From: a virus
Lineage: Duplodnaviria; Heunggongvirae; Uroviricota; Caudoviricetes
DNA: 64,000 nt
Strand: one strand, 5' to 3'
IMG/VR virus record: IMGVR_UViG_3300012983_000030
Part shown: positions 25,297 to 64,000 of the stretch, piece after piece
How the letters are laid out: each line of letters begins with the position of its first letter
Position numbering within the stretch: position 1 is the stretch's first letter
Made by a program: the position numbers and the translations under genes
Notes under the pieces: model-generated
Databases searched by the model: none
The model's input: the letters and a program-made list of their open reading frames with translations, nothing else
Told to the model about the DNA's origin: nothing

Positions 25297-25303
25297 TCTT
25301 ATG

Positions 25304-25419
25304 CGAGAAGTAGCTCAGTCTGGTAGAGCACGTATTTGTATTTAGTCCTAAATACGTACAGCATTATATTTTTTTGCTTGGTAAGCACGTGGTCATTGGT
25401 TCGAATCCAATCTTCTCGC
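25304..25419 (+). ncRNA. tRNA-like gene with a canonical 5' half and T-arm but an extra internal segment of about 42 nt
   Basis: 5' CGAGAAG-TA-GCTCAGTCTGGTAGAGC, T-arm ATTGGTTCGAATCCAAT, acceptor 3' CTTCTCG. The insert holds a 7-bp hairpin (CGTATTT/AAATACG) and a T-run. AGCACGT recurs on both sides of the insert. Confidence 0.4.
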
Positions 25420-25442
25420 ACTTTTTTAGAAAGGAAACATTA

Positions 25443-25700
25443 ATGAAATTATCTAAATCTGAAATTGAAAGAAAAGTAAAAGAAATATTAAGTGAAGTTT
25501 TAGTAGCACCTAAAGAATCAATTACTTTAAATGCAAATTTGGCACATGATTTAGGAGCAGATAGTTTAGATAATGTTGAAATAGTAATGTATTTAGAAGA
25601 AGAATTTGGGTATATTATTCCAGATGCGGTTACAGAAAAATTAGAAACAGTAGAAGATATTATTAATTATATAGAAGAAAGAGAAAAAAATGAAGTCTAA
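25443..25700 (+). CDS. acpP: acyl carrier protein
   Basis: Classic phosphopantetheine-attachment motif LGADSLDNVEIVMYLEEEFG. Shine-Dalgarno AAAGGAAA. The upstream part of the listed ORF (from 25374) overlaps a tRNA-like gene and is not coding. Confidence 0.7.
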   Translation: MKLSKSEIERKVKEILSEVLVAPKESITLNANLAHDLGADSLDNVEIVMYLEEEFGYIIPDAVTEKLETVEDIINYIEEREKNEV

Positions 25701-25891
25701 AAAAAATGACAATAACAGTTAAAATTCCAAAACCAAGGGATTTTAATTTAATAAATGCTCAAATAAAAGGATTGTTAAGAACAAAAGTAATTAGAAATAA
25801 AAAGAAAGACGTAAAAAAATATAATTGGAAAAAAGATATGTCTTATTATTTAAGTATTTTAACAATAAAGTATTTTAATAATAAGACATAT

Positions 25892-25968
25892 GCCTGATTA
25901 GCTCAGTCTGGTAGAGCATCTCGTTTACACCGAGAGGGTCGGCAGTTCGAACCTGTCATCAGGTACCA
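25892..25968 (+). tRNA. tRNA-Val(TAC): tRNA-Val (anticodon TAC)
   Basis: D-arm TAGCTCAGTCTGGTAGAGC, anticodon arm TCTCG-TTTACAC-CGAGA, CCA encoded. Confidence 0.7.
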
Positions 25969-26108
25969 TTTTTAATTTTAACTTCTTGTGGTGTAAGCGA
26001 TAGGTTTAATAATACTATAGCTCTTTTATTAAATCCTAACGGTAGTAGCTTAATTCCCACTAAGGTTTAGGTACAAGTGCAAGTCTTGTCAAGAAGAACA
26101 TTTTTTAT

Positions 26109-26188
26109 GGGGTGTTAAATCTGGTTCTAGAACAGATTGCTTAGGATGTAGGTCCAAGATAACGTGTGAAAATCATGTGGCCCCGCCA
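26109..26188 (+). ncRNA. non-canonical tRNA-like or structured RNA of about 80 nt (GGGGTGT...GGCCCCGCCA)
   Basis: Terminal helix with a CCA-like end followed by a T-run; internal palindromic hairpin AATCTGGTTCTAGAACAGATT; no canonical T-loop. Confidence 0.25.
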
Positions 26189-26277
26189 TTTTTTATAATA
26201 TTAAATATAATATTGTTTTACTTTCTAAATAATGTATATTAAATAATAAAAGTTGAAATTATTTAGAAAGGTTTAAA

Positions 26278-26445
26278 ATGACATATCAATATTATTCCAG
26301 AAAAGAATTACAAGAAATTTATAATACATCACAAAAGACAGAAAATCTCACATTTTCAACGTTTTATATTAGAGTACATCAATTAAATTGGTCTATTGAA
26401 AAAGCATTAACTTATTATGTAAAACCATTAAAAAGGAGAAAATAG
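26278..26445 (+). CDS. small hypothetical protein
   Basis: 55-aa ORF whose stop abuts the start of the next gene. Confidence 0.25.
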   Translation: MTYQYYSRKELQEIYNTSQKTENLTFSTFYIRVHQLNWSIEKALTYYVKPLKRRK

Positions 26446-26622
26446 ATGGCAAACTCTAGACAAGAATATAACTATGAGATTTTAAAAGTTCTGAAAGAAA
26501 ATATTAAAAAATATCCAGATTATAGATTTATCCAATTACTTTGGGCATTAAATATTATCGATGGCTCAGACAAGTTTTATGAAGAATCGAAAGAAACTTT
26601 AGATTATATAAAAGATAAATAA
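26446..26622 (+). CDS. small hypothetical protein
   Basis: Shine-Dalgarno AAAGGAG upstream; 58 aa. Confidence 0.3.
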   Translation: MANSRQEYNYEILKVLKENIKKYPDYRFIQLLWALNIIDGSDKFYEESKETLDYIKDK

Positions 26623-26700
26623 AAAATATTATTCCTGTTTTACTTTTTTATAAATTCATAGTATATAAAAAGTATTCTATAAATAAAAAAGGAGAAATTT

Positions 26701-28266
26701 ATGAATACTTATATTGATGTTTTAGGTTTAGATAAAAATCACACTGAAATTAAACCAGCTCGTGTAAAGACAAATAGTTTTATCAAAGCTCAAACTAATA
26801 AAACGTTTACTGAAAACGGGGCTTTGACTAATGCTTCTTCTTTATCTAAAATTGTTGATTGGTTTTTTCATGGAGCTGCTCTTCGTAAAGCTGAAGAAAA
26901 ACGTATTTTAAATTTATTCACAGATGCATTTAAAGAGAATCCTACTAGTGCTTTACGTATTTTATTTTATATTCGTGATATTCGCGGTGGACAAGGCGAA
27001 CGTCGTACTTTTAGAATTTGTTTGCAATGGCTTGGAAATTATGAAGCAGAATGGTTATCAAAAAATCTATCATTGATTTTTGAATATGGTAGATGGGATG
27101 ATTACTTTGTATTATTTGATACTAAAATTGCTAATACAGTAATTGATTTCATTGGAAGCCAACTTGAAAAAGATTTGAAACATCATGTTAATAATGAAAT
27201 AAGTAATCTTTCGTTGTTAGCAAAATGGATGCCTTCTGAAGCAAGTGTTAAGTATGAAACAAAAAAATATTATAATGCTTTACTTAAAACTGGTAAATTT
27301 GGTACAAAACGTAATTATCGTAAAGCAATCAGTATTTTAAGAAAAGACTTAGATATTGTTGAAAGAAAATTATCTGCTAAAGAATACTCTAATATTGATT
27401 ATGAAAAATTACCTTCATATGCAATGTTAAAATATTCTAAGCCTCGTGTTTATAATGGTATGGAAGGTAGCTTTTTAAGAAATGATAAAAAGCGTTTTTC
27501 TGAATACTTAGATAAAGTAAATAAAGGTGAAACAAAAATAAACGCTAAGACTTTATATCCATACGATTTAGCACGTGAATATACTGATAATCTTTATTGG
27601 AAGTGTACTTATAAAAAATCTGAGTTAAATGCTACTATTGAAGCTCAATGGAAAGCATTACCAGATTATGTTCCAGAAATAAACGGATTAGTAGTATGTG
27701 ATACTTCTGGTTCAATGAATGGTTTGCCTATGGCAGTAGCTATGTCTTTAGCAGTTTATATTGCAGAAAGAAATAAATCTGAAATTTGGAAAAATTATGT
27801 AATACCATTTTCATCTTCAGCTAAATTTATGGAAGTATCTGGTGAAACACTTCTTGAAAAATTAATATCAATATATACTGGTGATTGTAGTAATACAAAT
27901 TTACAAGCAGTATTTGATTTAATTTTAAATAGAGCTAAGGCAGCAAATGTATTGGCAGAAGACATGCCAAAACAATTGTTGATTATAAGTGATATGGAAT
28001 TTGATTCTACTTCATTTGGATATACAAATTATGAAAAAATTAAACATAAGTATAAAGAGAGTGGATATGTTTTACCAAAATTAGTTTGGTGGAATGTAGA
28101 CAGTAGAAATACACAAACTCCAGTTACTATTGATGATAAAAATAATTTGTTATTGTCTGGATCATCTCCTTCTTGCTTAAAAGTAGCTTTATCTGGAGAG
28201 TTTGATATAGTTGAAACAATAAATAAAATTATTGAACAAGAACGATATAGTTGTATAAATTATTAA
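26701..28266 (+). CDS. DUF2828-like protein with a C-terminal von Willebrand A (MIDAS) domain
   Basis: MIDAS motif VVCDTSGSMNG; N-terminal region ILFYIRDIRGGQGERR; 521 aa. Confidence 0.5.
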   Translation: MNTYIDVLGLDKNHTEIKPARVKTNSFIKAQTNKTFTENGALTNASSLSKIVDWFFHGAALRKAEEKRILNLFTDAFKENPTSALRILFYIRDIRGGQGERRTFRICLQWLGNYEAEWLSKNLSLIFEYGRWDDYFVLFDTKIANTVIDFIGSQLEKDLKHHVNNEISNLSLLAKWMPSEASVKYETKKYYNALLKTGKFGTKRNYRKAISILRKDLDIVERKLSAKEYSNIDYEKLPSYAMLKYSKPRVYNGMEGSFLRNDKKRFSEYLDKVNKGETKINAKTLYPYDLAREYTDNLYWKCTYKKSELNATIEAQWKALPDYVPEINGLVVCDTSGSMNGLPMAVAMSLAVYIAERNKSEIWKNYVIPFSSSAKFMEVSGETLLEKLISIYTGDCSNTNLQAVFDLILNRAKAANVLAEDMPKQLLIISDMEFDSTSFGYTNYEKIKHKYKESGYVLPKLVWWNVDSRNTQTPVTIDDKNNLLLSGSSPSCLKVALSGEFDIVETINKIIEQERYSCINY

Positions 28267-28288
28267 GTTCTAATAAAAAGTTTAGAGT

Positions 28289-28462
28289 CACCAAAAAACA
28301 TACAGCAGACACTATATGAAAAATATTTGTATTTAACATAGGTCGGTATTGTTTAGATAGTTAAGATTTGTTCTGATTATCAATGAGTGACAATACGAGA
28401 TGAGGACCCGGATGCGTTTTTTGTTAAGCGTGACTCTAAAGCGGGTCCTCATTTATTTTAAA
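28289..28462 (+). ncRNA. structured non-coding element with nested inverted repeats, including a GC-rich hairpin with T-run
   Basis: Outer inverted repeat TTTAGAGTCAC...GTGACTCTAAA (11 bp, 130 nt apart); inner GATGAGGACCCG...CGGGTCCTCAT followed by TTTATTTT. Confidence 0.3.
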
Positions 28463-28473
28463 AGGAATATAAA

Positions 28474-29025
28474 TTGAAAAAGTATAAAACAAAAATAAAA
28501 AATTTAAAAAATACAATAAATAATACTTCAAAAGAACTTGCCTGGAATGTAGACATAGCTTTTGCTGAAATGTTATATCCAGTTATTAAACAGTTTAAGA
28601 AAGATGCATTAAAACACATTGATTTTTCACAATATGGTATGTATAAATATGAAAAAATATTATGTAAATATTTAAAAAATAAAAAAGTGTATGAATATTT
28701 TCATAATAAAGGTAAAACTAGATTTGAAAATAAACTCAATGAATTAGAAGATTGTTTGAATGATATTTGTATAGAAGATACTAAAGAACACAGAACAAAA
28801 TGGAATTTAAAAGAATTATTAGAAGTAAAATATAATCATATTCCTATTAAAAAACCAAATGTTGGATTATTATATCGTATGGAAATCAAGCCAGAATATA
28901 AAGAAAATGATATAAAAAATACAAAAATAATACAATATAATGCAAAGATACTTAAAAAATGCTATAAATGGCGAAAAAAATGCTTATATTGGTTTATTGA
29001 TAATTTACATATTTTATGGTGGTAA
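28474..29025 (+). CDS. hypothetical protein
   Basis: 183-aa ORF. Confidence 0.4.
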   Translation: MKKYKTKIKNLKNTINNTSKELAWNVDIAFAEMLYPVIKQFKKDALKHIDFSQYGMYKYEKILCKYLKNKKVYEYFHNKGKTRFENKLNELEDCLNDICIEDTKEHRTKWNLKELLEVKYNHIPIKKPNVGLLYRMEIKPEYKENDIKNTKIIQYNAKILKKCYKWRKKCLYWFIDNLHILWW

Positions 29026-29028
29026 AAA

Positions 29029-29313
29029 ATGGATATTGTTACCTTAATGAAGTTACATAAAACTACTTTTAAAAATAAAGAATTATTAGATACAACTAAT
29101 GAATGCGCATGCTGTTCTTGTAATCATTTTTTAAAAACTTCAGACATTAAAGAATGGACAGATAATGCTTTAACTGCAATATGTCCATTATGTGGAGTAG
29201 ATGCTATAATTCCTATAACTGTTGAAAATCCTATAACTGAAGATGATTTGGAAAAATTATATAAATATTATTTTACTAATTTAGAAAAAGAATTTAAAAA
29301 TAATAAAAAATAA
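29029..29313 (+). CDS. hypothetical Cys-rich protein
   Basis: CACCSC...CPLC pattern. Confidence 0.4.
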   Translation: MDIVTLMKLHKTTFKNKELLDTTNECACCSCNHFLKTSDIKEWTDNALTAICPLCGVDAIIPITVENPITEDDLEKLYKYYFTNLEKEFKNNKK

Positions 29314-29510
29314 CAGTTCTATAAAACATGATGAATATTTTAGTGACATATTTTTACCCTTATTATCAACAACCTATAAACGGTTGATGGGTAGTTATTA
29401 CTTAAAATATTATCATAAGTAGGAAGTGCCCATCAAAAGAAATTTTGTGGGTATTTTTTTATTTTTGTGTTTTACATTTATTATTTTAGGTATTATATTT
29501 ATATTGTTTT

Positions 29511-29587
29511 CGGAATGTAGCTCAGCCTGGTAGAGCGCTAGTTTTGGGTACTAGATGTCGTGAGTTCAAGTCTCGCCATTCCGACCA
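29511..29587 (+). tRNA. tRNA-Pro(TGG): tRNA-Pro (anticodon TGG)
   Basis: Acceptor CGGAATG/CATTCCG, anticodon arm CTAGT-TTTGGGT-ACTAG, CCA encoded. Confidence 0.7.
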
Positions 29588-29592
29588 TTTAA

Positions 29593-29678
29593 GGGTGAGT
29601 CGCATAGAGGCTTATTGCAGCGGACTGTAAATCCGCCGTCTTCGGACATCGGTGGTTCAAATCCATCCTCACCCACCA
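29593..29678 (+). tRNA. tRNA-Tyr(GTA): tRNA-Tyr (anticodon GTA), type II
   Basis: Acceptor GGGTGAG/CTCACCC, anticodon arm GCGGA-CTGTAAA-TCCGC, long variable arm, CCA encoded. Confidence 0.7.
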
Positions 29679-29682
29679 TTAT

Positions 29683-29756
29683 TGGAGGATCGTCTAAAGG
29701 TAGGACAACGCACTTTGACTGCGTTAATATTGGTTCGATTCCAGTTCCTCCAGCCA
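29683..29756 (+). tRNA. tRNA-Gln(TTG): tRNA-Gln (anticodon TTG)
   Basis: Acceptor TGGAGGA/TCCTCCA, anticodon arm ACGCA-CTTTGAC-TGCGT, CCA encoded. Confidence 0.65.
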
Positions 29757-29776
29757 TTTTTTAATAAAGGGGGTTA

Positions 29777-30812
29777 TATGCGAACAGTAGGCACGTCTGT
29801 ATATGGATTAATTTGTCCAATTTTTAAAGAAGGTGATGATTTATGCCAAAAAATTTGTGATACACTTTTAAATAGTGAATTAGAAATAAATGATAGAGAT
29901 ATTTTAGGTATTACAGAATCTGTGGTCGCTAGAACTGAAGGAAATTATGTTACTGTCGATGAAGTAGCAGAATCAGTTAAAAAGTTATTTAATAATCCAA
30001 TAGATATTTTAGTATATAATCCGATTTATTCTCGTAATAGATTCGCAATGATTTTAAAAGGCATTGCAAGAGCAGTTACAGGAACTGTCTATATAACAAT
30101 GCTTAATATTGATGAAGTTGGTAATGTATTACAAAATCACCCTTTTACTGGTTTGAATTATGATGAATATTATAAATCAATTGTTGAAGCAGAAGGTAAA
30201 AAGTGTTATATTATATATCAAAATGAATCAGTAGGTTATTTTGATAATGTAATAGATTGTCAAATACATCAAAATACATTCGATGTAACATTAAAAGACA
30301 TTTGTTCAGATAAATGCGAATATGGACTTTATGGTTCAAATAAAGCAACAGAAGAAAAATTAAAGTTATTTCCATCTAAAAAATTTGCTCAAGAACTTAT
30401 TAGTAATATTCAAATTACTATTTATGGCAAAGTCGGTAAGAAAATTGAAGTAATGGTATATGGGGATGGTTGTTTTAAAGACCCTGTTGGTGGAATATGG
30501 GAATTAGCAGACCCTGTTGTAAGTCCTGCTTATACAGATGGATTAAATGGAACTCCTAATGAGTTGAAACTCAAATATTTAGCAGATAATGATTATAAAG
30601 ATTTGAGTGGAGACGAATTAACAAATGCTATTAAACAAAGCATTAAAACAAAAGATAAAAATCTTGTTGGCAACATGGCATCACAAGGAACAACACCGAG
30701 AAGATTAACAGATTTATTAGGTTCTTTAATGGATTTAACATCTGGAAGTGGTGATAAAGGTACACCTGTTGTTTATGTCAAAGGTTATTTTGATAATTTG
30801 AGTACTTATTAA
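29777..30812 (+). CDS. CofE-like (F420-0:gamma-glutamyl ligase family) amino-acid ligase-like protein
   Basis: ILGITESVVARTEGNYV resembles the CofE active-site strand. Shine-Dalgarno AAGGGGG. The start was moved from 29652 because the upstream part overlaps tRNAs. Confidence 0.45.
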
Positions 30813-30822
30813 GGAGGTCTTA

Positions 30823-31026
30823 ATGAAATTAAAGTATATAATACTTTTTATTTTGATTATTTTATTGTTAATGGCTTGTTCTCATGAAAATACTTCTTTA
30901 GATTTAGATAAAGAATTACGTTGTCAAGGTTATATTCGCACTGATTATACTGAAGAAGAAATTTTAAATGAATATTCAAATGTACATGAATGCATACAAT
31001 ATAATAAAAAATTTTATTGCTATTAA
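30823..31026 (+). CDS. small lipoprotein
   Basis: Signal peptide followed by a lipobox (LLLMAC); 67 aa. Confidence 0.4.
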   Translation: MKLKYIILFILIILLLMACSHENTSLDLDKELRCQGYIRTDYTEEEILNEYSNVHECIQYNKKFYCY

Positions 31027-31072
31027 TTTTCTGCTTTTAATTTAATGTAAAATTTGATATATAAATAAATAT

Positions 31073-31150
31073 GCGTCGGTAGCTCAGCCCGGTTAGAGCT
31101 GTCCGCTCATAACGGATAGGTCGTTGGTTCGAATCCAGCCCGACGCACCA
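31073..31150 (+). tRNA. tRNA-Met(CAT): tRNA-Met/Ile2 (anticodon CAT); second CAT tRNA
   Basis: Acceptor GCGTCGG/CCGACGC, D-arm TAGCTCAGCCCGGTTAGAGC, anticodon loop CTCATAA, CCA encoded. Confidence 0.65.
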
Positions 31151-31151
31151 A

Positions 31152-32330
31152 TTATAATAAATTTAAATTAACAATACAAAGTACTAGCTTTTCATTTGTT
31201 TCAACACTACTCTCTAAAGCCCTAGCTAGTACTTTTTTATTTATATCATACCATTTCTTTTTTCTTGCAATTCCTGGAATAGATGATAATACTAATTTAT
31301 CACCTCTTTGTATTTTTCCAATTACTCTTACTAATACCCGTCCAGACAATGCAATTTTACAAGGATTTTCATAATCATTATTACTATTTAAGATAAAACC
31401 AGGTTGACTTGAAATTACTGCAATAGGATCTGAAGAAGCAATGGATATTTCACTATTTTTGCCTATTTTGACTAAAGTTCCAGCAGGATAATTTTTATCT
31501 GCTTCATAAATTTCTGCTAAATCTGCATATTGGGCATATAATGCTGTACCTTTAATAATACTAGAAAAAGTTTTAACGCCTGCTATTGTCTCATCACCAG
31601 TCTTATGAACAACGGCACTGTCATTAGCTTTTCCTGCAAGAGAAGTTGCCCAATTACTCCAATCCATTTGAGATTGATTGATTTGACCATTAGCAACAAT
31701 TACAAAAAATCTTGCTCTTAAGTTATCACCTTGTACTTTAGCTCCACTTTTATGAATGCCATTTTCTGCTGAAGCGTTAGTCATTTGTTGACGAGCAGTG
31801 GAATATCCTGAAGCAGCTCTATCTGAAAATTCACCATTGGTACCAGCTCCATTCGTACCTGTATTGACAATTACACCTCCAACAGTAGTAGATGTTGCAG
31901 GAACATATCCAGCATTCCCTGCTGTTCCTCCAGCATTAACAATAGCAAGATGGTGAGTATGATCCGGTAAACTTTCTTTATATATTTTTCCTAATTCACT
32001 ATCAGATTTAGCTTGTGTAAGATAACTACCGTCTTTTATTGTTGGTACTTTAAATTTTTTATTAGTCGAATCTACTGCAAATTTATTTGTTTGACCATAT
32101 GTATTTAGGTCAGTGGTATATTCGGCATAAGTACAAGTAAGTAATTTTCCAGTTAATAAATAATTATTAAACAGCTCAGAAAATTGAGCTTCTTGATATT
32201 CTGATCCATCACAAGGTAAACAACCAGAAGGAATATAAGAAGAATTACAAATTACTTTAACAATCTGTCCTATAATTTGTATACCATCTGATGTTCCAAA
32301 TATTTTTTTAGTACCTAAATAAACACCCAT
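31152..32330 (-). CDS. tail fiber / receptor-binding protein
   Basis: Gly/Thr/Asn-rich repeats and a VHKTGDETIAGVKTF-type fiber motif. It lies next to another fiber gene. Confidence 0.55.
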   Translation of the reverse strand: MGVYLGTKKIFGTSDGIQIIGQIVKVICNSSYIPSGCLPCDGSEYQEAQFSELFNNYLLTGKLLTCTYAEYTTDLNTYGQTNKFAVDSTNKKFKVPTIKDGSYLTQAKSDSELGKIYKESLPDHTHHLAIVNAGGTAGNAGYVPATSTTVGGVIVNTGTNGAGTNGEFSDRAASGYSTARQQMTNASAENGIHKSGAKVQGDNLRARFFVIVANGQINQSQMDWSNWATSLAGKANDSAVVHKTGDETIAGVKTFSSIIKGTALYAQYADLAEIYEADKNYPAGTLVKIGKNSEISIASSDPIAVISSQPGFILNSNNDYENPCKIALSGRVLVRVIGKIQRGDKLVLSSIPGIARKKKWYDINKKVLARALESSVETNEKLVLCIVNLNLL

Positions 32331-32332
32331 AA

Positions 32333-32638
32333 TTATTCTTCCAGTTTACGAATTTCTTCTCTCCAAGCTTTACGTGTAGCCTTTTTGATTTCCCATTCTT
32401 CTTCAGTATATTCACCGTCTAAATATTTTTGTCCCCAGTAATCTGCCTCTTTTAACAAATATTTTAATTCTAAAATTCTATTTTTCTTTGCTTCTTCTTC
32501 AGTTGGTTTTGGGGTTTGTATAATTTCATAATATGTATCACAATCTTTAAATTCAGCATGGTTTGCATTACACCAAATAGCATATTTAGCATATTCTTCA
32601 TCAGTTAATTTATCTTTGTATAATTTTTTACCTATCAT
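32333..32638 (-). CDS. hypothetical protein (possibly a fiber assembly factor)
   Basis: 101-aa ORF lying between the two fiber genes. Confidence 0.35.
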   Translation of the reverse strand: MIGKKLYKDKLTDEEYAKYAIWCNANHAEFKDCDTYYEIIQTPKPTEEEAKKNRILELKYLLKEADYWGQKYLDGEYTEEEWEIKKATRKAWREEIRKLEE

Positions 32639-32647
32639 TTCTTTATC

Positions 32648-33790
32648 CTAATAACCGCATGCATACCAATGTACAGGACCACCGTCAGTACCTGAACCAC
32701 TTAGACCATGAATATAAAGAGTTACTTTTGAAGTAGTAACAAAAGTTACTCCTGCATTATTAGCTGTATTACCAACAGTCACTCTCATTTCGTTTGCTTC
32801 ACCGTTTGTTACTTCCAAATTACAAATAAAAGTAGGTTTTTGAGTAAATGCTTTCAAAAACGTTAAAGTATTAGTAGTTCCTCTATACCAAGCTGCTGTT
32901 ACACCGCCTTGTTCAATCCAACCATCAGACCAAACTCTATACCAGTTATTACCAGATTTATAGTTTTGTGTAATAACAGCGACTCTATTTGCGGTAGCAG
33001 AAGAAGTAGTAGTAGCTTTAGCAGTACATTTTGGGAAAGACATATTTACTCCACCTGCTGTATCTACCCAAAGATTTAATTGAGCATACTGCATAGTACC
33101 ATTAATACTTCTACCATGATTTATTCCAAATCTACTAGTACCATCTGTTAGCCAATAACCTTCTACTTTACCATAACGCTGACCTTTATTATCATAAAAA
33201 GTCATACCACTATAAGCAGCAGAGGTAGGCGTTGTCATATGATCTGTAAAATGAGTAGCATAATGAGAAATAGTATCTGCATTTGTTTTAATTACTAATT
33301 TGCCTGTCATGGTATCACCAGCTTTTGCTACTTTAGTATTATTTTCAGTTTTAGTAGCAAATTTGGCGTCAGCTTCTATAATGTTATACTTGGCATTTAA
33401 AAGATAATCTATTTCAGCTTGAGTATATGTATTGACTATTAATGATTCTGCTTCGTCTGTAATACTATATAAAGTATTATCATCTTTAGTAGTTAAAGCA
33501 TCATATTCTGCTCTAGTTCCTACCCAATTTTTTATAATTAAGTTTTTATTTGTTTCTACTGTACCAATTGTTTGGTATTGACTGTTTGTATCTTTTTTGA
33601 TACTATTTACATTAAATTTTGGAATATTATTTAAATCAGTATATTCATTAGTAGTAGCAACTTTACTTAATGAAGAAATGTCTGCTTTTTTATCGATAGC
33701 AGACTTTACGGCTTTTTGAGAAGGAATTATATAATCAGAATTAGCACTAAAAGAAGAATCAGTGTCTAAATTTAAATATTTAGTAGTCAT
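32648..33790 (-). CDS. tail fiber protein
   Basis: N-terminus MTTKYLNLDTDSSFSANSDYIIPSQKAVKSAID, paralogous to the partial fiber gene at 1-639. Confidence 0.6.
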   Translation of the reverse strand: MTTKYLNLDTDSSFSANSDYIIPSQKAVKSAIDKKADISSLSKVATTNEYTDLNNIPKFNVNSIKKDTNSQYQTIGTVETNKNLIIKNWVGTRAEYDALTTKDDNTLYSITDEAESLIVNTYTQAEIDYLLNAKYNIIEADAKFATKTENNTKVAKAGDTMTGKLVIKTNADTISHYATHFTDHMTTPTSAAYSGMTFYDNKGQRYGKVEGYWLTDGTSRFGINHGRSINGTMQYAQLNLWVDTAGGVNMSFPKCTAKATTTSSATANRVAVITQNYKSGNNWYRVWSDGWIEQGGVTAAWYRGTTNTLTFLKAFTQKPTFICNLEVTNGEANEMRVTVGNTANNAGVTFVTTSKVTLYIHGLSGSGTDGGPVHWYACGY

Positions 33791-33915
33791 AACATTAAAT
33801 AATCTCTATATTGAAACTTAATATATTATATATGATATATGAACGATTTAATTTAGTTTTTTGTTTTACTACACAAATATAATAGTATAATATAATTGAA
33901 AATAAGGAGTTTGTC

Positions 33916-34308
33916 ATGACACGAATTAATTTAATATCAACAAAAGAATTATCTGATCAACATTTATTAGCAGAATATAGAGAATTACCTCGTGTAATTA
34001 AAGGTGATTTTAATATTAATAATGCTCCAATAAAATATTGTCTCGGTAAAGGACATATAAAATGGGCAAAGTTACATAGTGCTTATTTAATTCTTAGATA
34101 TGATTTAATTTGTCAAGAAATGAGATATAGAGGTTTTACAGTTAATTATCCTTCGAAAGATTTAATTAAAGAATGGGATGGTGGACACATGTATTTTCCT
34201 TCAAAAGAAGATATAGAAGTAAGCAAAAGACGTTTAATAGAAAAATATAAATTAAAACCTAAATGGTATAAATGGACAAATAGAGAAAAACCAAAATATT
34301 TTTCATAA
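33916..34308 (+). CDS. denV: pyrimidine-dimer DNA glycosylase (T4 endonuclease V / DenV-like)
   Basis: N-terminus [27 protein letters not shown] closely matches T4 endonuclease V ([27 protein letters not shown]), including the catalytic N-terminal Thr and the Glu. Confidence 0.85.
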   Translation: [130 protein letters not shown]

Positions 34309-34492
34309 ATTGTGATTTTTTGCTTTACTTTAAATTTTTATATGTTATTATATTTTTTATCGACTATGATTGGTTAAATAAAGGTTCTAAATAATATGAT
34401 GAAAAGTACGATTAAACATTTTTGGCATTGTTTTTACTTCGCTAGAGGCGATGCCGTTTAATTATACCTTTTTGTCGGTATTATTTGGTTTG

Positions 34493-34525
34493 AGCCTCTG
34501 AGATTTTTCAGAGGCTTTATTTTTT
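34493..34525 (+). terminator. rho-independent terminator
   Basis: Hairpin AGCCTCTGA...TCAGAGGCT followed by a T-run. Confidence 0.6.
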
Positions 34526-34601
34526 GGTTAAGTAGCTCAGTTGGTAGAGCAGGAGACTGAAAATCTTCGTGTCGGCGGTTCGATCCCGTCCTTGACCACC
34601 A
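34526..34601 (+). tRNA. tRNA-Phe(GAA): tRNA-Phe (anticodon GAA)
   Basis: D-arm TAGCTCAGTTGGTAGAGC, anticodon loop CTGAAAA, T-arm GGCGGTTCGATCCCGTC, CCA encoded. Confidence 0.7.
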
Positions 34602-34603
34602 TT

Positions 34604-34677
34604 GCACTGTTGGCAGAGAAGTTATGCATCGGTCTGCAAAACCGACAAGAGAGGTGCAATTCCTCTACAGTGCTCCA
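34604..34677 (+). tRNA. tRNA-Cys(GCA): tRNA-Cys (anticodon GCA)
   Basis: Acceptor GCACTGT/ACAGTGC, anticodon arm TCGGT-CTGCAAA-ACCGA, CCA encoded. Confidence 0.65.
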
Positions 34678-34678
34678 T

Positions 34679-34753
34679 GCGATTGTAGTATAATGGTTAT
34701 TATTCCGGTCTTCCAAACTGAGGATGTGAGTTCGATTCTCACCAGTTGCTCCA
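34679..34753 (+). tRNA. tRNA, isotype uncertain (loop CTTCCAA gives anticodon TCC = Gly, or CCA if read with an 8-nt loop)
   Basis: Acceptor GCGATTG/CAGTTGC with G-U pairs, T-arm GTGAGTTCGATTCTCAC, CCA encoded. The anticodon stem is weak. Confidence 0.45.
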
Positions 34754-34755
34754 AT

Positions 34756-34829
34756 AGGGGTTTAGTTTAATGGTAAAACCTTACTCTCCAAAAGTAAAGA
34801 TGATAGTTCGATTCTGTCAACCCTTGCCA
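34756..34829 (+). tRNA. tRNA-Trp(CCA): tRNA-Trp (anticodon CCA)
   Basis: Anticodon arm TTACT-CTCCAAA-AGTAA, T-arm GATAGTTCGATTCTGTC, CCA encoded. Confidence 0.6.
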
Positions 34830-34848
34830 TAAAATAAAGGAATATAAT

Positions 34849-35328
34849 ATGAAAAGAATAAGTAAAATATTAAGTATAAGTCATCAAGAATTGCAAGATA
34901 TAATTGATGTTTCAAATTCATTATCAGATATTTTAGTTAAATTAGGATACAGTCCAAATGGTGGAACAAATTATGTAACTTTAAAGAATAGATTATATAA
35001 TGAAAATTTTGATTTAAAAAAATTATTAGAAAAGCGTAAAAATAATTATAGAAATATTAAATTAAAAAATGCTGAAGAAGTTTTTATACAAAATTCCATG
35101 TATGCAAGACATAATTTAAAAAGAAGAATATTAAAAGATAATTTAATACTATATAAATGTGCTATTTGTGGGCAAGAACCTATTTGGAATGGAAAAGAAT
35201 TAGTATTAGTTTTAGATCACATAAATGGAATAAATAATGATAATAGATTAGAAAATTTAAGATTTTTATGTCCAAATTGTAATGCTCAACAAGATACTTT
35301 TGCGGCTAAAAATAAAAATAAACATTAA
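34849..35328 (+). CDS. HNH homing endonuclease
   Basis: HNH motif LVLDHINGINNDNRLENLRFLCPNCNAQ and an N-terminal DNA-binding region. It lies inside the tRNA array. Confidence 0.75.
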   Translation: MKRISKILSISHQELQDIIDVSNSLSDILVKLGYSPNGGTNYVTLKNRLYNENFDLKKLLEKRKNNYRNIKLKNAEEVFIQNSMYARHNLKRRILKDNLILYKCAICGQEPIWNGKELVLVLDHINGINNDNRLENLRFLCPNCNAQQDTFAAKNKNKH

Positions 35329-35393
35329 CTTTATATTATTTTTGTCATTTCTACGAATAGAAGTATATATCAGTATATATCTGGTCTATTCTT

Positions 35394-35469
35394 GTGTTCG
35401 TAGCTTAATTGGTAAAGCGCTAGATTGTGGTTCTGGAGGATATGGGTTCAAGTCCCATCGATCACCCCA
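35394..35469 (+). tRNA. tRNA-His(GTG): tRNA-His (anticodon GTG)
   Basis: D-arm TAGCTTAATTGGTAAAGC, anticodon arm CTAGA-TTGTGGT-TCTGG, T-arm TGGGTTCAAGTCCCA, CCA encoded. Confidence 0.6.
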
Positions 35470-35477
35470 ATTATTAT

Positions 35478-35550
35478 ATACCCGTGAGTCAAGTGAAGCA
35501 TACGGTTTCCATCATCGTAAGAGTAGGACATCTTCCTGCCGGGTATGCCA
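35478..35550 (+). ncRNA. tRNA-sized (73 nt) non-canonical tRNA-like gene
   Basis: Perfect acceptor ATACCCG/CGGGTAT plus GCCA. The anticodon-like arm ACGGT-TTCCATC-ATCGT has a CCA triplet with T at position 37. The T-arm GTAGG-ACATCTT-CCTGC lacks the TTCGA consensus, and the D-arm is unclear. Confidence 0.3.
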
Positions 35551-35551
35551 C

Positions 35552-35626
35552 AGAGGTATAGTTCAGTAGTAGAACATTGATCCCCAAAACCAAATGTCGG
35601 GAGTTCGAATCTCTCTGCCTCTGCCA
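35552..35626 (+). tRNA. tRNA, isotype uncertain (anticodon loop CCCCAAA)
   Basis: Acceptor AGAGGTA/TGCCTCT, D-arm TAGTTCAGTAGTAGAAC, T-arm GGGAGTTCGAATCTCTC, CCA encoded. The anticodon stem has one mismatch and position 33 is C. Confidence 0.45.
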
Positions 35627-49372: not shown

Positions 49373-49474
49373 CTTGTCCAACTAAATAGAAGGATATGCC
49401 AACCTAATAAAAAAGGTGTATCCTTCTTATACTTTAATTAAAAACCTTAACCACATATAGAAAGGAAATTTAAC

Positions 49475-50704
49475 ATGTCTAAAATTCAAGATAAATTTTT
49501 AATGCCAGAATTCACAATTGATACAATCGTTGATGAAAAAGGTAATGAGACACCAGGTATTAAACGTATGTATGATATTGCATTAGCTATCAATGACAGT
49601 ATTATGCAATGGGGTGCTCCTGGTGTTGGTAAGTCACAAGCAGTTCAACAATGGAATGCTGAAAAAGTAATTGAATATCAGAAAAGAATAGCAGCAGGTG
49701 AAAAGGTAAAACCTTGGAATCCAGATGTTTGTGATGTACGTTTAAGTATGAAAGAACCTGTTGACTTAGTTGGTGTACCAATTCCTACTAAGAATGAAAA
49801 AGGTGAAATGTGTACTGTATGGGCTACTCCTAGTATGTGGCCAAAAGATAATGGTGAGTTCGAAGGTGGTGTAATTCACTTAGATGAAATGAACCAAGGT
49901 CAAGCAGCAATTCTTAATGCAGCTTTCCAACTTATTCAAGACCGAGCTCTAGGAGAATACAAAGTACCTGAAGGTTACATTATCATTGGTTCATCTAATA
50001 CTTCAGCTTATAATAATACAGTAACTGAGTTTAGTGTTCCATTGTCTAACAGATTTAGTCACTTTAATATTAAAGCAGACTTTAATTCTTGGTTAAACTA
50101 TAGAATGAATAATGGAGGTAACCTGGATGTCATGACCTTCTTAAAGACACAAGGCTCCAATATGTTATTCGATAGTGAAACAATGAAACAGAGAGTTGGT
50201 GACTTAGCAGATGCTATGTATACTGATATTGTTGTAACACCAAGGTCATGGGAAGTAATTGAGAAATTACTGAACTTGCCAGTAGGTAATCCATCAACTG
50301 GTGGATTTAGTTTGGATGAGAAACAAAGATATGCAACCGGTCGTTTAGGATTGGCTTTGGCATCAAGATTATTCTTGTACTTGAAGGATAAAGAAAAATA
50401 TCAGGATTGGAGAGAAATTCTTATTGATGGAAAAGACTTCCGTGATGAGAATACTGAACAATTCTGGGCAGTACAGATGGCATGTATGTCTACTATCATT
50501 AATGAAAATGATGATAAGAAATGTCGTGATTATGTATTGAACTTTATCAATGCAACAAGACATCTTAAATCTAAAGCATATCAAGTAATTAATATTACTC
50601 AGTTAGTAAGAACTAAACGATTACTTGGTGCACTCCATATCTTCAATCCAATGAAAGATTGTCCAGATATGGTAATGCTGGCATCCGTATCACTTAAAAA
50701 CTAA
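49475..50704 (+). CDS. MoxR-like AAA+ ATPase
   Basis: Walker A GAPGVGKS, Walker B VIHLDEMN, sensor-like SSNTS. It has a partner protein carrying a vWA domain. Confidence 0.6.
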   Translation: MSKIQDKFLMPEFTIDTIVDEKGNETPGIKRMYDIALAINDSIMQWGAPGVGKSQAVQQWNAEKVIEYQKRIAAGEKVKPWNPDVCDVRLSMKEPVDLVGVPIPTKNEKGEMCTVWATPSMWPKDNGEFEGGVIHLDEMNQGQAAILNAAFQLIQDRALGEYKVPEGYIIIGSSNTSAYNNTVTEFSVPLSNRFSHFNIKADFNSWLNYRMNNGGNLDVMTFLKTQGSNMLFDSETMKQRVGDLADAMYTDIVVTPRSWEVIEKLLNLPVGNPSTGGFSLDEKQRYATGRLGLALASRLFLYLKDKEKYQDWREILIDGKDFRDENTEQFWAVQMACMSTIINENDDKKCRDYVLNFINATRHLKSKAYQVINITQLVRTKRLLGALHIFNPMKDCPDMVMLASVSLKN

Positions 50705-50782
50705 GAGTTGATACTAAGTAAAAAGGGACTGAGTTAAGGCTTGGTCCCTTACTAACCTAACCACAAACAGAAAGGAAACACA

Positions 50783-51289
50783 ATGACTTATGTAGTTAAA
50801 CAAGATAAAGCATACATAAAGTTTGATAGATTTGTAAGAGGAATGTCTATCGTAACTACAATGGAACCAGTTGTAAATATAATAGTAGCAACTGAGTTTG
50901 AAACAGAAAATTCAGCAAAATCAATACTTAAAGAAGCAGACTCTTGTGGATTTGATATTACTAAATGTGTAATTCATGATAGAGATGAAATAGATAAACA
51001 AGACCAAGAAAGAGCAAAAGCTGAAGCGCTTGCTATACAAAAGGAAGCCTGGGAGAATACATCAGAAAAAAGAAAGCGTGAAATGCTTAGAGCAATCCTA
51101 GATAATAATGGTCAAGAAGCTGTAGATAAGTTTCTAAAAGAAGTTGGTGATACTTCAGGTATTCAACCTGCTGAACCAGCTGAGAACGATAACTTATCCA
51201 TCCTAGATAAAGTATATCAAAATATGGAGAAACTTTTAGGTAGACCATTAACTGAGTCTGAAAAAGAAGATTTAACTAAAGGAGTTTAA
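50783..51289 (+). CDS. hypothetical protein lying between the ATPase and the vWA gene
   Basis: 168-aa ORF; Shine-Dalgarno AAAGGAA. Confidence 0.4.
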   Translation: MTYVVKQDKAYIKFDRFVRGMSIVTTMEPVVNIIVATEFETENSAKSILKEADSCGFDITKCVIHDRDEIDKQDQERAKAEALAIQKEAWENTSEKRKREMLRAILDNNGQEAVDKFLKEVGDTSGIQPAEPAENDNLSILDKVYQNMEKLLGRPLTESEKEDLTKGV

Positions 51290-51290
51290 T

Positions 51291-52646
51291 ATGGAAACAG
51301 ATGTAAAAGATTTATGGGAAAGAGCAATGATTGATTTAGTATTAGATTTTCCTATATATGCAAATCTTATTACTAGAATCGGTTGTAAAATAGTTGAGAC
51401 TCCCACAGATAGTATTGCTTGGACTGATGGTAAAGCTATCTATATAAATGCAACAACTGTTAAGAAATGGAATGAAGATCCTATTATAACTGGTGATTCA
51501 GGAAAACAATATAACAGAACAATTGGTAAAAAAGAAATGATGTTTCTTCTTTGTCATGAGTTAATGCATCTTATTGGTTTAACATTCGATAGAGGAACTG
51601 CTCTTGGTATATCAAATGTACATGAAACAAATGAAGAAGAAAGAGCAAAACAAATCCTTTGGAATAAAGCTACTGACTATGAAATTAATGCGATATTACA
51701 TACAAATGAAAGTCGTGATGCTAATGGTCGAGTAACTAGAAATCCTGTAGGTAAGATGCCAGAAGTTGGTTTATACTCATCTGAATATAGAGACATGCCA
51801 GCTGAAAAGATTTATGAACAATTATATGAAGAATATCAAAAGAATCCTGAAGGCAATAAGCAATCATTCACATTTGATGGTGACCAAACTGGTAACTCAG
51901 CAGATGGTTTAGGATGTAGCTTAGACCAACACATGCCTATCCTAGATGATGCTACACGAAGTGAAGTAATCTCTAAGATGTCAGAAGTATTTGGTTCAAC
52001 ACAAAATGGTACTGGTGAGTCAGCTATTGACAGAATGTTAGAAAGAGCATTCAAACCACAACCATTTAACTGGAGACGTGCGCTAACTAAGTACATCAGA
52101 GGTTGGATGAAAGATAATTATACTTGGAATAAACCTTCACGTGCTGGTATAGCAAATGGTTTAATCTTACCTTCTTCTGGTCGTACACCTAAAATGCACA
52201 TTGGTGTATCAGTTGATACTTCAGGTTCGATTCATGATTCAGAATTACATACAATGATGGATCATCTATTTACTATCTTACAACAATTCAAAGACTTTCA
52301 AGTTGATGTTTGGTGCTGTGGTTCAGAAGTATATCCTGAAACATTCAGAACATATACTGGACAGAACAAGAAAGACTTAGTTAACTTTGAGTTTAAGTCT
52401 GATGGTGGTAACGATATGCGTAAGAATTTTGAGTTTATCAAAAACAAATATCGTGGTGATAAATTAGATTTATTCATCTGTATGTCTGACTTTTATGATC
52501 CACTTGATGGTGATACAACAACAGTAAGTCCTTGTAATTGTATTTGGTTAGTACTAGATCATCCTGACTTTGTACCACCAAAATTGATTAAAGCAGAAAC
52601 TTATCCGTTTGTTGTTGAAAAAAGTAAAAACGATAGCAGATACTAA
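51291..52646 (+). CDS. HExxH zinc-metallopeptidase-like plus von Willebrand A domain protein (DUF2201-like MoxR partner)
   Basis: HExxH motif (LLCHELMHLIGL) in the N-terminal half and a MIDAS motif (GVSVDTSGSIHDSE) in the C-terminal half. Its start overlaps the stop of the upstream gene. Confidence 0.55.
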   Translation: METDVKDLWERAMIDLVLDFPIYANLITRIGCKIVETPTDSIAWTDGKAIYINATTVKKWNEDPIITGDSGKQYNRTIGKKEMMFLLCHELMHLIGLTFDRGTALGISNVHETNEEERAKQILWNKATDYEINAILHTNESRDANGRVTRNPVGKMPEVGLYSSEYRDMPAEKIYEQLYEEYQKNPEGNKQSFTFDGDQTGNSADGLGCSLDQHMPILDDATRSEVISKMSEVFGSTQNGTGESAIDRMLERAFKPQPFNWRRALTKYIRGWMKDNYTWNKPSRAGIANGLILPSSGRTPKMHIGVSVDTSGSIHDSELHTMMDHLFTILQQFKDFQVDVWCCGSEVYPETFRTYTGQNKKDLVNFEFKSDGGNDMRKNFEFIKNKYRGDKLDLFICMSDFYDPLDGDTTTVSPCNCIWLVLDHPDFVPPKLIKAETYPFVVEKSKNDSRY

Positions 52647-52707: not shown

Positions 52708-53559
52708 ATGAGAAGTAAATTAGTACAATATATAAAGCAGTATATCGAATATGTTAAAAGCAGAACGGATATCGAAGATACAACTAAGTCTTTCTTTATA
52801 CGAGAAATTGAAAGTCATTTTAAGTACATACTACGTGATAGAGATCCAACGAAAGTTAATCATAGTGCAAAAAGATATTCCGACTTACCAGAATACATTT
52901 GGTATGTACCACCAAAAATTCTTTTTAACATTATGCATGCTGATGATCTTGAATACATTAGTGCTCGATTATGTGCAATAGAAGATATTGATAACCCAAC
53001 AGATACTGAAATGACTTTTTTAATACGTAATGGTGTAAACTTATCACATTTAGGATTATATACATTTATTTGGGGAAAGCAAAAAACATATGAAATGATA
53101 TTTAGATGTTTACAAAAATATGATTATATTGATCTATCACGACATTGTTATGGATGTAGTATCGATGATGTTATTGATTTTCTTGCAGCAATTCCTTCAA
53201 AATTTATTAATTCAATAAATGGTTTGGATTCAGTTTTTGGTATACGTATAGGTGATATCATTAAATATGAAGAATTTGATAAGTTATGTCAAAAAAATCC
53301 AATGTATTATAAAAAGATTGGTATGTTTATTACTGATAAACGAACAAATTTTTATAAACATATAATGAGAAGATTTAATCTTAGTGATACTTATATAACC
53401 TGTCTTGCAATTAAACAGTGTTGTGACAGACATACTGTGACTGCAACAGATGAAACTGTCTTAAAAGAATATGCTGGATTAATAAGACTTTATGATTATA
53501 ACGCTGATGCAATCATAGATAATATACTTGAGAGTAAGTTAAAGGAGAATGTAAAATGA
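52708..53559 (+). CDS. hypothetical protein
   Basis: 283-aa ORF; Shine-Dalgarno GAAGGAG. Confidence 0.4.
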   Translation: MRSKLVQYIKQYIEYVKSRTDIEDTTKSFFIREIESHFKYILRDRDPTKVNHSAKRYSDLPEYIWYVPPKILFNIMHADDLEYISARLCAIEDIDNPTDTEMTFLIRNGVNLSHLGLYTFIWGKQKTYEMIFRCLQKYDYIDLSRHCYGCSIDDVIDFLAAIPSKFINSINGLDSVFGIRIGDIIKYEEFDKLCQKNPMYYKKIGMFITDKRTNFYKHIMRRFNLSDTYITCLAIKQCCDRHTVTATDETVLKEYAGLIRLYDYNADAIIDNILESKLKENVK

Positions 53560-63051: not shown

Positions 63052-63092
63052 AGTTCCTCCTAGTTTTTCGACTTCTAGGAGGAATTTTTTTA
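63052..63092. terminator. bidirectional terminator
   Basis: Perfect stem TCCTCCTAG / CTAGGAGGA followed by a T-run. It abuts the stop of the minus-strand gene at 63090. Confidence 0.6.
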
Positions 63093-64000
63093 TTCATTAT
63101 ACCATACAAACTTTTTAGAGCCACATCCATGACATTCAAATAGCTTACCTTCATTTACCATTTGCTTATATTGTTGATATGCATATGGACTTCTATTAAT
63201 TCTTTGCATTTTATTATTAATAGTAATATAAAACTTATCTGGACCGGTATATCCTTCTAATTGAAATCCTGCTTCTTCATATCCTTTACCACTGAATAAA
63301 TTCCAATCACTAAAGCATAGTATATTATTCGGTTTATACGTATCAATAAAATATTTTAATAATTTGCTAGTACCACCTACTACTTTATTATTACTACTAA
63401 TACAACCGCGAACCCATTCATACTCATATTTATCTATGCTATTATAACTATATTGTCTAGCTTTATTAAAGGAAGCTATCTGTACTAATTCATTTTTATA
63501 GTATAATCCTAGCTTAATACTAGCACTTCTATATCCTTGTACGTGATATTTATTACAAAATTCTCTATAATCAGCAGTACTAACATCTCTTATTTCGCAT
63601 TTACGCGCATATATTTTTTCACCACGTATAATTCCTAATCTAGCAGCTATAATATCTTTAATAATTTCTTTTTGATTTTTCCACTGATCTTCCCATACTT
63701 GTATTAATTCTATACCTTCTTTATATGCAATTACATTCTTATTGAAGTGATAATTCTTTCCTCTATGGTTTATGCCATTACTAGCATGATAATAACAACC
63801 ATTGTACTCTACTGCTAAGTTTTTTTCTTTTACGTATATATCTAGTTCAAATCTATTATGATCTTTACCTATCACATACTTATTAGTACTAAAGCCTAAT
63901 GACTCTATATACTCTCTAATTTCTAATTCCCCTTTAGAAGAAAATAGTGTACCATTCTCACTTTTAGTTTGAAATGCTTTAAGATATCTTTCTTTCCACT
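63090..64000 (-). CDS. endonuclease-domain protein (DUF559/Vsr-like PD-(D/E)XK fold), partial; the N-terminus lies beyond the window end
   Basis: FELDIYVKEKNLAVEYNGCYYH motif. The reading frame has no stop between the listed GTG start at 63875 and position 64000, so the gene continues out of the window. Confidence 0.45.
   Translation of the reverse strand, partial: WKERYLKAFQTKSENGTLFSSKGELEIREYIESLGFSTNKYVIGKDHNRFELDIYVKEKNLAVEYNGCYYHASNGINHRGKNYHFNKNVIAYKEGIELIQVWEDQWKNQKEIIKDIIAARLGIIRGEKIYARKCEIRDVSTADYREFCNKYHVQGYRSASIKLGLYYKNELVQIASFNKARQYSYNSIDKYEYEWVRGCISSNNKVVGGTSKLLKYFIDTYKPNNILCFSDWNLFSGKGYEEAGFQLEGYTGPDKFYITINNKMQRINRSPYAYQQYKQMVNEGKLFECHGCGSKKFVWYNE

Follow-up and report, generated by a model that had tools for sequence, protein, structure and literature searches.

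The 64,000-nucleotide stretch of DNA analysed here, referred to throughout as the window, belongs to IMG/VR virus record IMGVR_UViG_3300012983_000030 of the Caudoviricetes. Between 49475 and 52646 it carries three consecutive open reading frames (ORFs), encoding an AAA+ ATPase, a small intervening protein and a partner protein that joins a zincin-type peptidase domain to a von Willebrand factor A (vWA) domain (Table 1). Each of the three is preceded by a GGA-rich ribosome-binding site 7-10 nt before its ATG, and just 1 nt separates the stop of the middle gene from the ATG of the partner. An earlier annotation of this DNA, called the original prediction below, had described the locus as a MoxR-type ATPase followed, after one small gene, by a protein with an N-terminal HExxH zinc-peptidase motif and a C-terminal vWA domain carrying a MIDAS motif (metal ion-dependent adhesion site). 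The three ORFs and the motifs GAPGVGKS, HLDEMN, HELMH and DTSGS occur exactly where it had placed them, far beyond what chance would give. We find that this locus adds a further member to a known phage gene module, that of gp24 and gp25 of phage N4, in a new host and ecological lineage and with a slightly divergent metal site.

Table 1. Genes, protein motifs and repeated element at the locus, in window positions. Fractions give conservation of residues: for the ATPase among up to 75 homologues of 10-29% identity, with the sequences aligned at each column as denominator; for the partner among 85 diverse homologues of 21-27% identity.
Feature	Position	Strand	Remark
AAA_5/MoxR-like ATPase, 409 aa	49475-50704	+	homologous to N4 gp24
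Walker A P-loop GAPGVGKS, aa 47-54	49613-49636	+	G50 and K53 72/72; G52 71/72; position 54 always S or T
Walker B HLDEMN, aa 135-140	49877-49894	+	position 137: D 70, E 4 of 74; position 138: E 66, D 8 of 74
Sensor-1 Asn N175 (IIGSSN) and R193 (PLSNRF, putative arginine finger)	49982-50056	+	each 74/74
Sensor-2 region VTPRSW (P256-R257)	50234-50251	+	R257 75/75; P256 71/75
Intervening protein, 168 aa	50783-51289	+	lineage-specific
Partner, 451 aa	51291-52646	+	homologue of N4 gp25; zincin and vWA
HExxH zinc-binding/catalytic motif HELMH, aa 89-93	51555-51569	+	H89 85/85; E90 84/85; H93 85/85
N125-x3-D129-x3-N133 (WNKATDYEIN)	51663-51689	+	each residue 85/85
MIDAS DxSxS motif DTSGS, aa 309-313	52215-52229	+	D309, S311, G312 and S313 each 85/85
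Rest of MIDAS: SDGGND (G372, G373, N374) and MSD aspartate D400	52398-52490	+	G373 82/82; D400 81/81
17-nt motif ACCACAnAnAGAAAGGA, ribosome-binding site included	49450-49466	+	ahead of ATPase start
Second copy of ACCACAnAnAGAAAGGA	50760-50776	+	ahead of 168-aa gene
Clade-specific gene, 157 aa	47384-47857	+	upstream cassette
Clade-specific gene, 104 aa	48068-48382	+	upstream cassette
Clade-specific gene, 324 aa	48398-49372	+	upstream cassette, directly before ATPase

The ATPase comprises an AAA+ core, at approximately residues 40-265, and an all-helical C-terminal domain, at approximately residues 270-409. Walker A, Walker B, sensor-1, arginine finger and sensor-2 are present in the canonical order. 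The Walker B region aligns with the 'lDEln.A' motif of midasin AAA domains, and the region from N175 to R193 with the midasin segment 'aAqNp...lp...nRF'. By profile search, the protein matches PHROG 1297, annotated 'ATPase', at 7e-55. Taken alone, it falls below the Pfam cut-offs for both AAA_5 (PF07728; 16.1 bits vs 22, E 0.012) and bpMoxR (14.9 bits vs 27, E 0.014), so that the MoxR-type call of the original prediction needed further evidence. This is found among its relatives. In a set of 40 close homologues, 24 match AAA_5 at E<=0.1 (best 2.3e-5), 23 match bpMoxR (best 3.6e-4) and five match AAA_3, and gp566 of phage G, which is 30% identical to the window ATPase (3e-28), passes the threshold of AAA_3 (PF07726, MoxR family) with 35.9 bits vs 27.

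A broad profile of the family, A3, was made from 39 diverse phage homologues and searched against the PDB sequences. The best match was midasin, at 2.5e-38 (2.6e-10 for the best single AAA domain), with CbbQ/NirQ/NorQ at 4e-10, the MoxR protein 2r44 at 1e-8 and RNF213 matching too; the alignment covers the signatures 'DEln.A...L' and 'N...lp...nRF'. A profile limited to the narrow clade of the window ATPase retrieved no PDB sequence at E<=1. Clp/Hsp104 domains score with A3 as well (1e-14 to 1e-9); the sequence evidence is thus AAA_5-like, and we leave the subfamily unnamed. Fold and family-profile matches fall on MoxR, midasin, NorQ, CbbQ and RavA, and the nearest solved relatives by profile and fold lie on the MoxR/midasin/dynein/chelatase side and not in other AAA+ clades. 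The homologue matches, the A3 profile, the fold and the conservation of the motifs together support the first gene product as an AAA_5/MoxR-like AAA+ ATPase, in line with the original prediction. The terminase and clamp-loader clades, which that prediction had itself named as placements that would count against it, are ruled out by the fold and profile ranks.

In the predicted structure, the C-terminal domain of about 140 residues is modelled with confidence as all-helical, and only designed helical repeats match it. A check for the helix-2 insert and pre-sensor-1 β-hairpin of AAA+ clade 7 located a β-hairpin at residues 103-115, between strands β2 and β3, where the model is of low confidence (pLDDT 43-61). 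Four homologues of the ATPase (P0016, P0018, P0113 and P0114; 567-688 residues, 69-76% identical) carry an intein within the Walker A motif, recognised by the Pfam families Hint, Intein_splicing and HNH_3. Its insertion, GAPG/C...HN/CGKS, corresponds to window positions 49622-49627, between G50 and V51. Conserved sites of important proteins are where inteins home.

The partner is a two-domain protein, as the original prediction had it. Its N-terminal region matches Pfam DUF2201_N (PF13203, putative metallopeptidase) over residues 79-295 (3.3e-15, 56.9 bits vs 23.2) and its C-terminal region matches DUF2201 (PF09967, VWA-like) over residues 306-430 (5e-8, 33.6 bits vs 26.4), both above the cut-offs; the whole protein matches PHROG 1314 at 2e-57. 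The AlphaFold2 model has a pLDDT of 80, with a low-confidence linker between the N-terminal and C-terminal domains, and in this model the C-terminal domain adopts a vWA (Rossmann-like) fold. vWA/MIDAS domains match the partner by profile and by fold. A broad profile of the partner family, A4, matches the vWA domains of integrins and ArnB and, through the HExxH helix, the peptidases selecase MJ1213 (4e-4) and M48 (1e-3), with HtpX and BepA also found. The DTSGS motif aligns to the integrin I-domain MIDAS 'iDgSGSi'.

Downstream of the HExxH helix lies a conserved N-x3-D-x3-N element, of which D129 is a candidate third zinc ligand. The invariance of the zincin and MIDAS residues across such distant homologues indicates that the peptidase and the MIDAS site are both under strong purifying selection. 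At two positions the window departs from its family. The last histidine of the extended motif HExxHxxxxH, kept in 79 of the 85 homologues, is a threonine (T98) in the window clade, and the threonine position of the MIDAS is occupied by asparagine (N374), a residue found in three of the 82 sequences aligned there, that of the window included, the other 79 having threonine. Of the MIDAS named in the original prediction, the DxSxS motif and D400 are present, and the threonine position holds an asparagine that the prediction had overlooked.

The family to which the partner belongs has been named in ways that do not reflect its domains. PHROG 1314 calls this zincin-vWA family 'HNH endonuclease', and many GenBank and RefSeq phage records label it 'HNH endonuclease', 'homing endonuclease', 'DNA repair ATPase' or 'putative anti-sigma factor'. 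The label 'HNH endonuclease' is wrong; no feature of the partner points to an HNH nuclease.

The ATPase and the partner are related to gp24 and gp25 of phage N4 (BLASTP, 24% identity over 314 residues, E 2e-16, for the ATPase and E 5e-7 for the partner), both of which belong to the 14-gene core of 25 N4-like phages. A tblastn search of phage records returned 657 with the ATPase and 405 with the partner, in every case below 60% identity. The carriers include N4-like podoviruses, rV5-like myoviruses, jumbo phages of the Rak2/121Q/GAP32/A4 type, PA5oct, Salicola phage SCTP-2, Thermus phage phiFa, phage G, Aeromonas and Vibrio phages and cyanophage S-TIM5, and their hosts span Proteobacteria, Firmicutes, Thermus and cyanobacteria. 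The partner family is large: a search of 1.84 billion proteins gave 11,338 cluster representatives (50% identity) with E<=1e-3.

Gene order is strictly kept. An ATPase homologue accompanies 71 of 80 partner loci in IMG/VR and lies upstream on the same strand in every one of the 71; the nine loci in which it is missing all end less than 1.4 kb upstream of the partner. The same arrangement occurs in 6/6 loci from genome assemblies, a scan with narrow patterns that samples the bacterial distribution thinly. The distance between the two genes varies from 4 nt to 4.4 kb. They adjoin each other in phages A4, W70 and N4, and are separated by four genes in PA5oct, a homing endonuclease among them, by three in phiFa, one of which encodes an RNase H, and by several in phage G. 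These observations support the ATPase and partner as a genuine, strongly conserved two-gene module.

The ATPase homologue of PA5oct (EST35_0335, L006:1-1081) carries the GenBank note 'ESI-MS/MS', a flag that also appears on structural proteins of that phage and hints that this ATPase was found in the virion proteome. The PA5oct preprint does not discuss the ATPase or partner genes.

The intervening gene, by comparison with its neighbours, is a local feature. The 168-residue protein matches no Pfam, PHROG, NCBIfam or PADLOC family and gave no tblastn match in the phage collection; it is kept only in the window's own clade, chiefly over its first ~70 residues. A different family, of ~220 residues, occupies the position between the pair in 29 viral loci. 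One of its members reaches the Pfam threshold of Nmad5 (1e-6, 29.4 bits vs 27), the nucleotide-modification-associated domain 5, and three examples (L018:2192-2857, L046:4385-5038 and L073:1108-1830) end in an acidic 'LLGD[DE]' tail. An unrelated family of ~284 residues is found there in 15 loci, and many loci have no intervening gene at all. Alignment of the intervening families to each other with hhalign gave probabilities of no more than 1%, thus no relation, and the window protein has no detectable likeness to Nmad5. With at least three unrelated families in this position, the intervening gene was rejected as a universal third component. The small gene that the original prediction noted between the pair is accordingly lineage-specific.

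Upstream of the ATPase, three further genes complete a cassette whose order in the window clade is 157-residue gene, 104-residue gene, 324-residue gene, ATPase, middle gene and partner. Of nine related loci, 7-8 keep the three upstream genes in this order, with identities of 27-60%. Across the clade the ATPase is 61-80% identical and the partner 52-67%, compared with only 27-34% for the 324-residue protein. None of the three upstream proteins matches a Pfam, PHROG or PADLOC family, and a search of the window proteins against NCBIfam returned nothing useful. We regard these genes as associated neighbours of the module and as no more than candidates for membership.

The pair sits within a co-oriented block of small ORFan genes on the + strand. 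The motif ACCACAnAnAGAAAGGA, which includes the ribosome-binding site, has just two matches in the window, against 0.13 expected, and at least two matches were obtained in 0 of 100 shuffles. No terminator-like site was found on the + strand from 46.9 to 54.5 kb, and a scan of the window for promoters and terminators showed no enrichment. The placement of the pair in an early-gene block of a lytic phage, as the original prediction put it, is plausible.

The source of the window is a jumbo myovirus of rumen or gut metagenomes. The window encodes a tail sheath and helicases and has a GC content of ~29%. A partner protein 100% identical to that of the window is encoded on a contig of 241,032 bp, and the relatives are single contigs of 245-249 kb labelled as metagenome-assembled genomes (MAGs) of a rumen 'Bacilli bacterium'. 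Neither the locus nor 25 kb of the window found a nucleotide match among 50,697 phage records, so this phage has no close sequenced isolate there. Two deposited relatives, JAFZWP010000001.1 (L091, 245,208 bp) and JAZNQD010000009.1 (L092, 249,415 bp), contain the ATPase-partner cassette with a partner 55-58% identical to that of the window. Both were submitted under the label 'MAG: Bacilli bacterium', from buffalo rumen and from another metagenome. They match the 241-kb contig of the window phage in length, and probably represent jumbo phages that were binned as bacterial genomes.

Elsewhere in the window, 23 tRNA genes were called by ARAGORN and 24 by Rfam. They represent most amino acids and lie from 21159 to 35626 in + strand clusters around a gene at 26701-28266 (+). 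The product of this gene is of the DUF2828 type, as the original prediction had stated (DUF2828 at 3e-42, DUF7788 at 7e-41). It also matches PHROG 850, annotated 'RNA-binding protein', at 7e-119, and has no PDB relative by sequence. One tRNA, at 25304-25419 (+), was found by Rfam (46.8 bits) and not called by ARAGORN; it has a 46-nt insertion in the region of the anticodon loop, overlaps the start of the ORF at 25374-25700, and may be intron-containing or otherwise interrupted. Genes resembling homing or HNH endonucleases occur at 63090-63875 (-; PHROG 3339 at 2.5e-69) and 21822-22754 (+; PHROG 15427/1271 at ~1e-7).

What might the pair do? We take the locus to be a copy of the widespread N4 gp24/gp25-type module and, on balance, think that it probably serves to remodel and cleave a phage-encoded target. 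Observed here are the domain identities, the intact active and metal sites, the strict gene order and the wide distribution; complex formation, proteolysis, target and timing are inferred, the mechanism by analogy with CbbQ-CbbO, NorQ-NorD, RavA-ViaA and midasin. The residues of the ATPase motifs and of HExxH, D129, DxSxS and D400, all invariant or nearly so, and the inteins seated in the P-loop of close homologues speak for active enzymes. On this analogy, the ATPase would assemble into a ring onto which the partner would dock, and the MIDAS site would grip an acidic residue on the target protein. The target would then be remodelled through ATP hydrolysis and cut by the zincin, which is tethered to the adaptor by fusion. 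It would be a phage-encoded protein or complex that needs maturation during intracellular development, rather than a host defence protein, and candidates may be sought in virion or ejection-protein assembly (Iyer et al., PMC7824862) or in a replication-phase complex. The pair is a core gene pair across unrelated phage families, which makes a phage-encoded target likelier than a host defence protein; its core-gene distribution, the order kept across families and the invariant active sites likewise favour a housekeeping phage function over a variable anti-defence gene.

Several observations weigh against this interpretation, or at least against its details. In N4 the pair precedes genes for dCTP deaminase, thymidylate synthase, rIIA/B, a helicase and DNA polymerase, and the usual context of the pair is a replication/nucleotide-metabolism or early-middle region, not the late structural module. 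Genes are also intercalated within the pair, RNase H in phiFa and the Nmad5-like gene in 29 loci. This context as a whole is a poor fit to virion assembly, and the assignment to that role is not secure. Within the window clade, the substitutions at T98 and N374 suggest that the metal sites may differ in behaviour from those of the rest of the family. Lastly, our survey of the literature on gp24/gp25, DUF2201 and COG3864 found no experiment on any family member.

The setting of the pair could also be read in terms of host takeover or counter-defence, the roles suggested by the original prediction, in which the motor and its vWA adaptor would seize a host protein, for instance a sensor or effector of immunity or else a housekeeping factor, for the zincin to destroy, making the pair a split phage AAA+ protease. 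The co-oriented block of small ORFans is typical of early and middle regions, the pair lies outside the late structural genes in other phages, the flanking clade-specific genes evolve fast (the 324-residue protein above all, when set against the ATPase), and bacterial conflict systems are built on MoxR-vWA cores (PMC7159879). Against such a role stand the core-gene status of gp24 and gp25 in N4-like phages and the conservation of the pair, with invariant active sites, in phages whose hosts are Proteobacteria, Firmicutes, Thermus or cyanobacteria. Genes directed against defence systems tend to be sporadic and tied to particular hosts. PADLOC offers no match beyond DolB on the ATPase at 0.0077, Pfam scans of the window proteins revealed no VMAP, iSTAND or beta-propeller third component, and we found no experimental link in the literature; we therefore hold this explanation to be unlikely. 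A more general proposal would cover both kinds of target. In this view, the module would be an AAA+ protease encoded by the phage in two parts, with the MoxR-like unfoldase feeding a specific protein to the MIDAS-tethered zincin. The protein fed would be either a host factor (immune, nucleoid, transcription or translation) or a phage ejection or replication protein. The module would be essential in many unrelated phage families, with the 324- and 168-residue proteins acting as specificity factors or substrates in the window clade. Stated so fully, it is more doubtful still.

The characterised MoxR-vWA pairs, such as CbbQO, NorQD and BchI/D, mostly mature metalloenzymes, and the same job may be imagined here: a chaperone that inserts a metal cofactor into, or activates, a metalloenzyme of either phage or host that acts in nucleotide or DNA metabolism, in the manner of NorQD, CoxD/E, CbbQO and the Mg and Co chelatases, with the zincin-like domain serving mainly to bind metal or substrate. 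Its neighbours in other phages suit such a function, namely the dCTP deaminase and thymidylate synthase of N4, a dUTPase after the vWFA gene in RG-2014, a thymidylate synthase near the pair in A4 and the Nmad5-like gene within it. These neighbours, however, vary between lineages and are absent beside the window pair. The near-invariant catalytic glutamate of HExxH points to hydrolysis rather than mere binding, and neither a CobS_N, CobT or BchD signature nor a large CobN/BchH-like subunit is present, the largest ORF of the window having 664 residues. We consider a metal chaperone more improbable again than the proteolytic alternatives. Least credible of all is the 'VMAP-type' label that the original prediction attached to the pair, which would make it a phage-borne ternary conflict system dependent on NTP, whether of the VMAP type or another. 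A MoxR-like ATPase does adjoin a vWA protein here, and the bpMoxR matches, below threshold for the window ATPase and shared by its homologues, lean the same way. The VMAP-C component, however, was not found: the intervening gene, the three upstream genes and the downstream ORF at 52708-53559 match no Pfam or PADLOC family, where Pfam is assumed to include a VMAP-C model (the bpMoxR model is present). The effector is also misplaced, as the zincin is N-terminal and the vWA domain closes the protein, and the intervening gene is confined to one lineage, with nothing in its place at many loci. The evidence at hand already contradicts this reading, and the label does not hold. We accordingly retain remodelling and cleavage of a phage-encoded target as the preferred interpretation.

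The pair itself is not new. Lists of core genes have included N4 gp24 and gp25 since 2009-2014, and the combination of MoxR with a peptidase-vWA protein was described for jumbo phages in 2021 (PMC7824862). What the present analysis adds is a tidier picture, in which one module extends across N4-like, rV5-like, Rak2-like and PA5oct-like phages, phage G and Thermus phages and now to jumbo phages of the rumen or gut. It ranks among the more widespread conserved phage gene pairs for which the literature searched yielded no functional experiment, and it is testable in N4 and E. coli. The 'HNH endonuclease' misannotation, propagated through PHROG 1314, is worth correcting.

Among cellular systems, CbbQ-CbbO, NorQ-NorD and RavA-ViaA differ from the window pair in that the partners CbbO, NorD and ViaA have no zincin domain and in that these systems serve defined cellular metalloenzymes; the helical C-terminal domain also sets the window ATPase apart from these cellular MoxR-vWA pairs. 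A CobS/CobT cobaltochelatase-like pair was considered and rejected, there being no CobS/CobT match in Pfam or NCBIfam, a zincin domain in the partner instead, and no large CobN-like ORF in the window. Midasin (Rea1/Mdn1), which the ATPase family profile matches best, likewise unites AAA_5 modules and a MIDAS vWA domain, and the latter binds an acidic residue of its ligand. Unlike the window pair, it is one giant chain of eukaryotes in which six AAA domains are fused; it has no peptidase and acts in ribosome biogenesis. The VMAP systems (Kaur et al. 2020, PMC7159879) have the MoxR and vWA core in common with the window pair. These ternary systems include a third protein with a VMAP-C domain and have effectors fused C-terminal to the vWA domain, whereas in the window neither a VMAP-C protein nor an effector C-terminal to the vWA domain was found, there is no link to multicellular bacteria, and the peptidase is an N-terminal zincin.

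There are viral counterparts as well. The Acidianus two-tailed virus proteins p618 (MoxR) and p892 (vWA), cited in PMC7824862, are reported to be a chaperone system with which tails develop outside the cell; this virus is archaeal and non-tailed, p892 is described as a vWA protein with no peptidase domain, and the comparison with the window pair is one of descriptions only. A MoxR ATPase with a vWA cochaperone fused to an N-terminal metallopeptidase has been described in group 2.2 jumbo phages, with a proposed role in virion assembly through chaperone activity and peptidolytic processing (Iyer et al. 2021, PMC7824862). Its architecture is the same as that of the window pair, and among the phages matching that pair, those of the Rak2/121Q/GAP32/A4 type are jumbo phages of gammaproteobacteria, a kind that the paper considers. 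That work confines the pair to group 2.2 jumbo phages, whereas the matches found here also include N4-like, rV5-like and Thermus phages and phage G, and the window phage is of a low-GC rumen or gut jumbo lineage unlike group 2.2. In N4 (Schitoviridae), gp24 is an AAA ATPase and gp25 a vWFA protein, and the pair shares with that of the window the gene order, the strand, the HExxH and DxSxS motifs and the AAA+ motifs. The two differ in that the N4 genes are directly adjacent, where the window has its intervening gene, and in that the N4 proteins are shorter, at 352 and 380 residues. N4 gp25 also retains the histidine five residues after HExxH ('HELWHVGLLH') that is a threonine in the window. The same module is thus carried by N4, a podovirus of E. 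coli, and by a jumbo myovirus of the rumen or gut.

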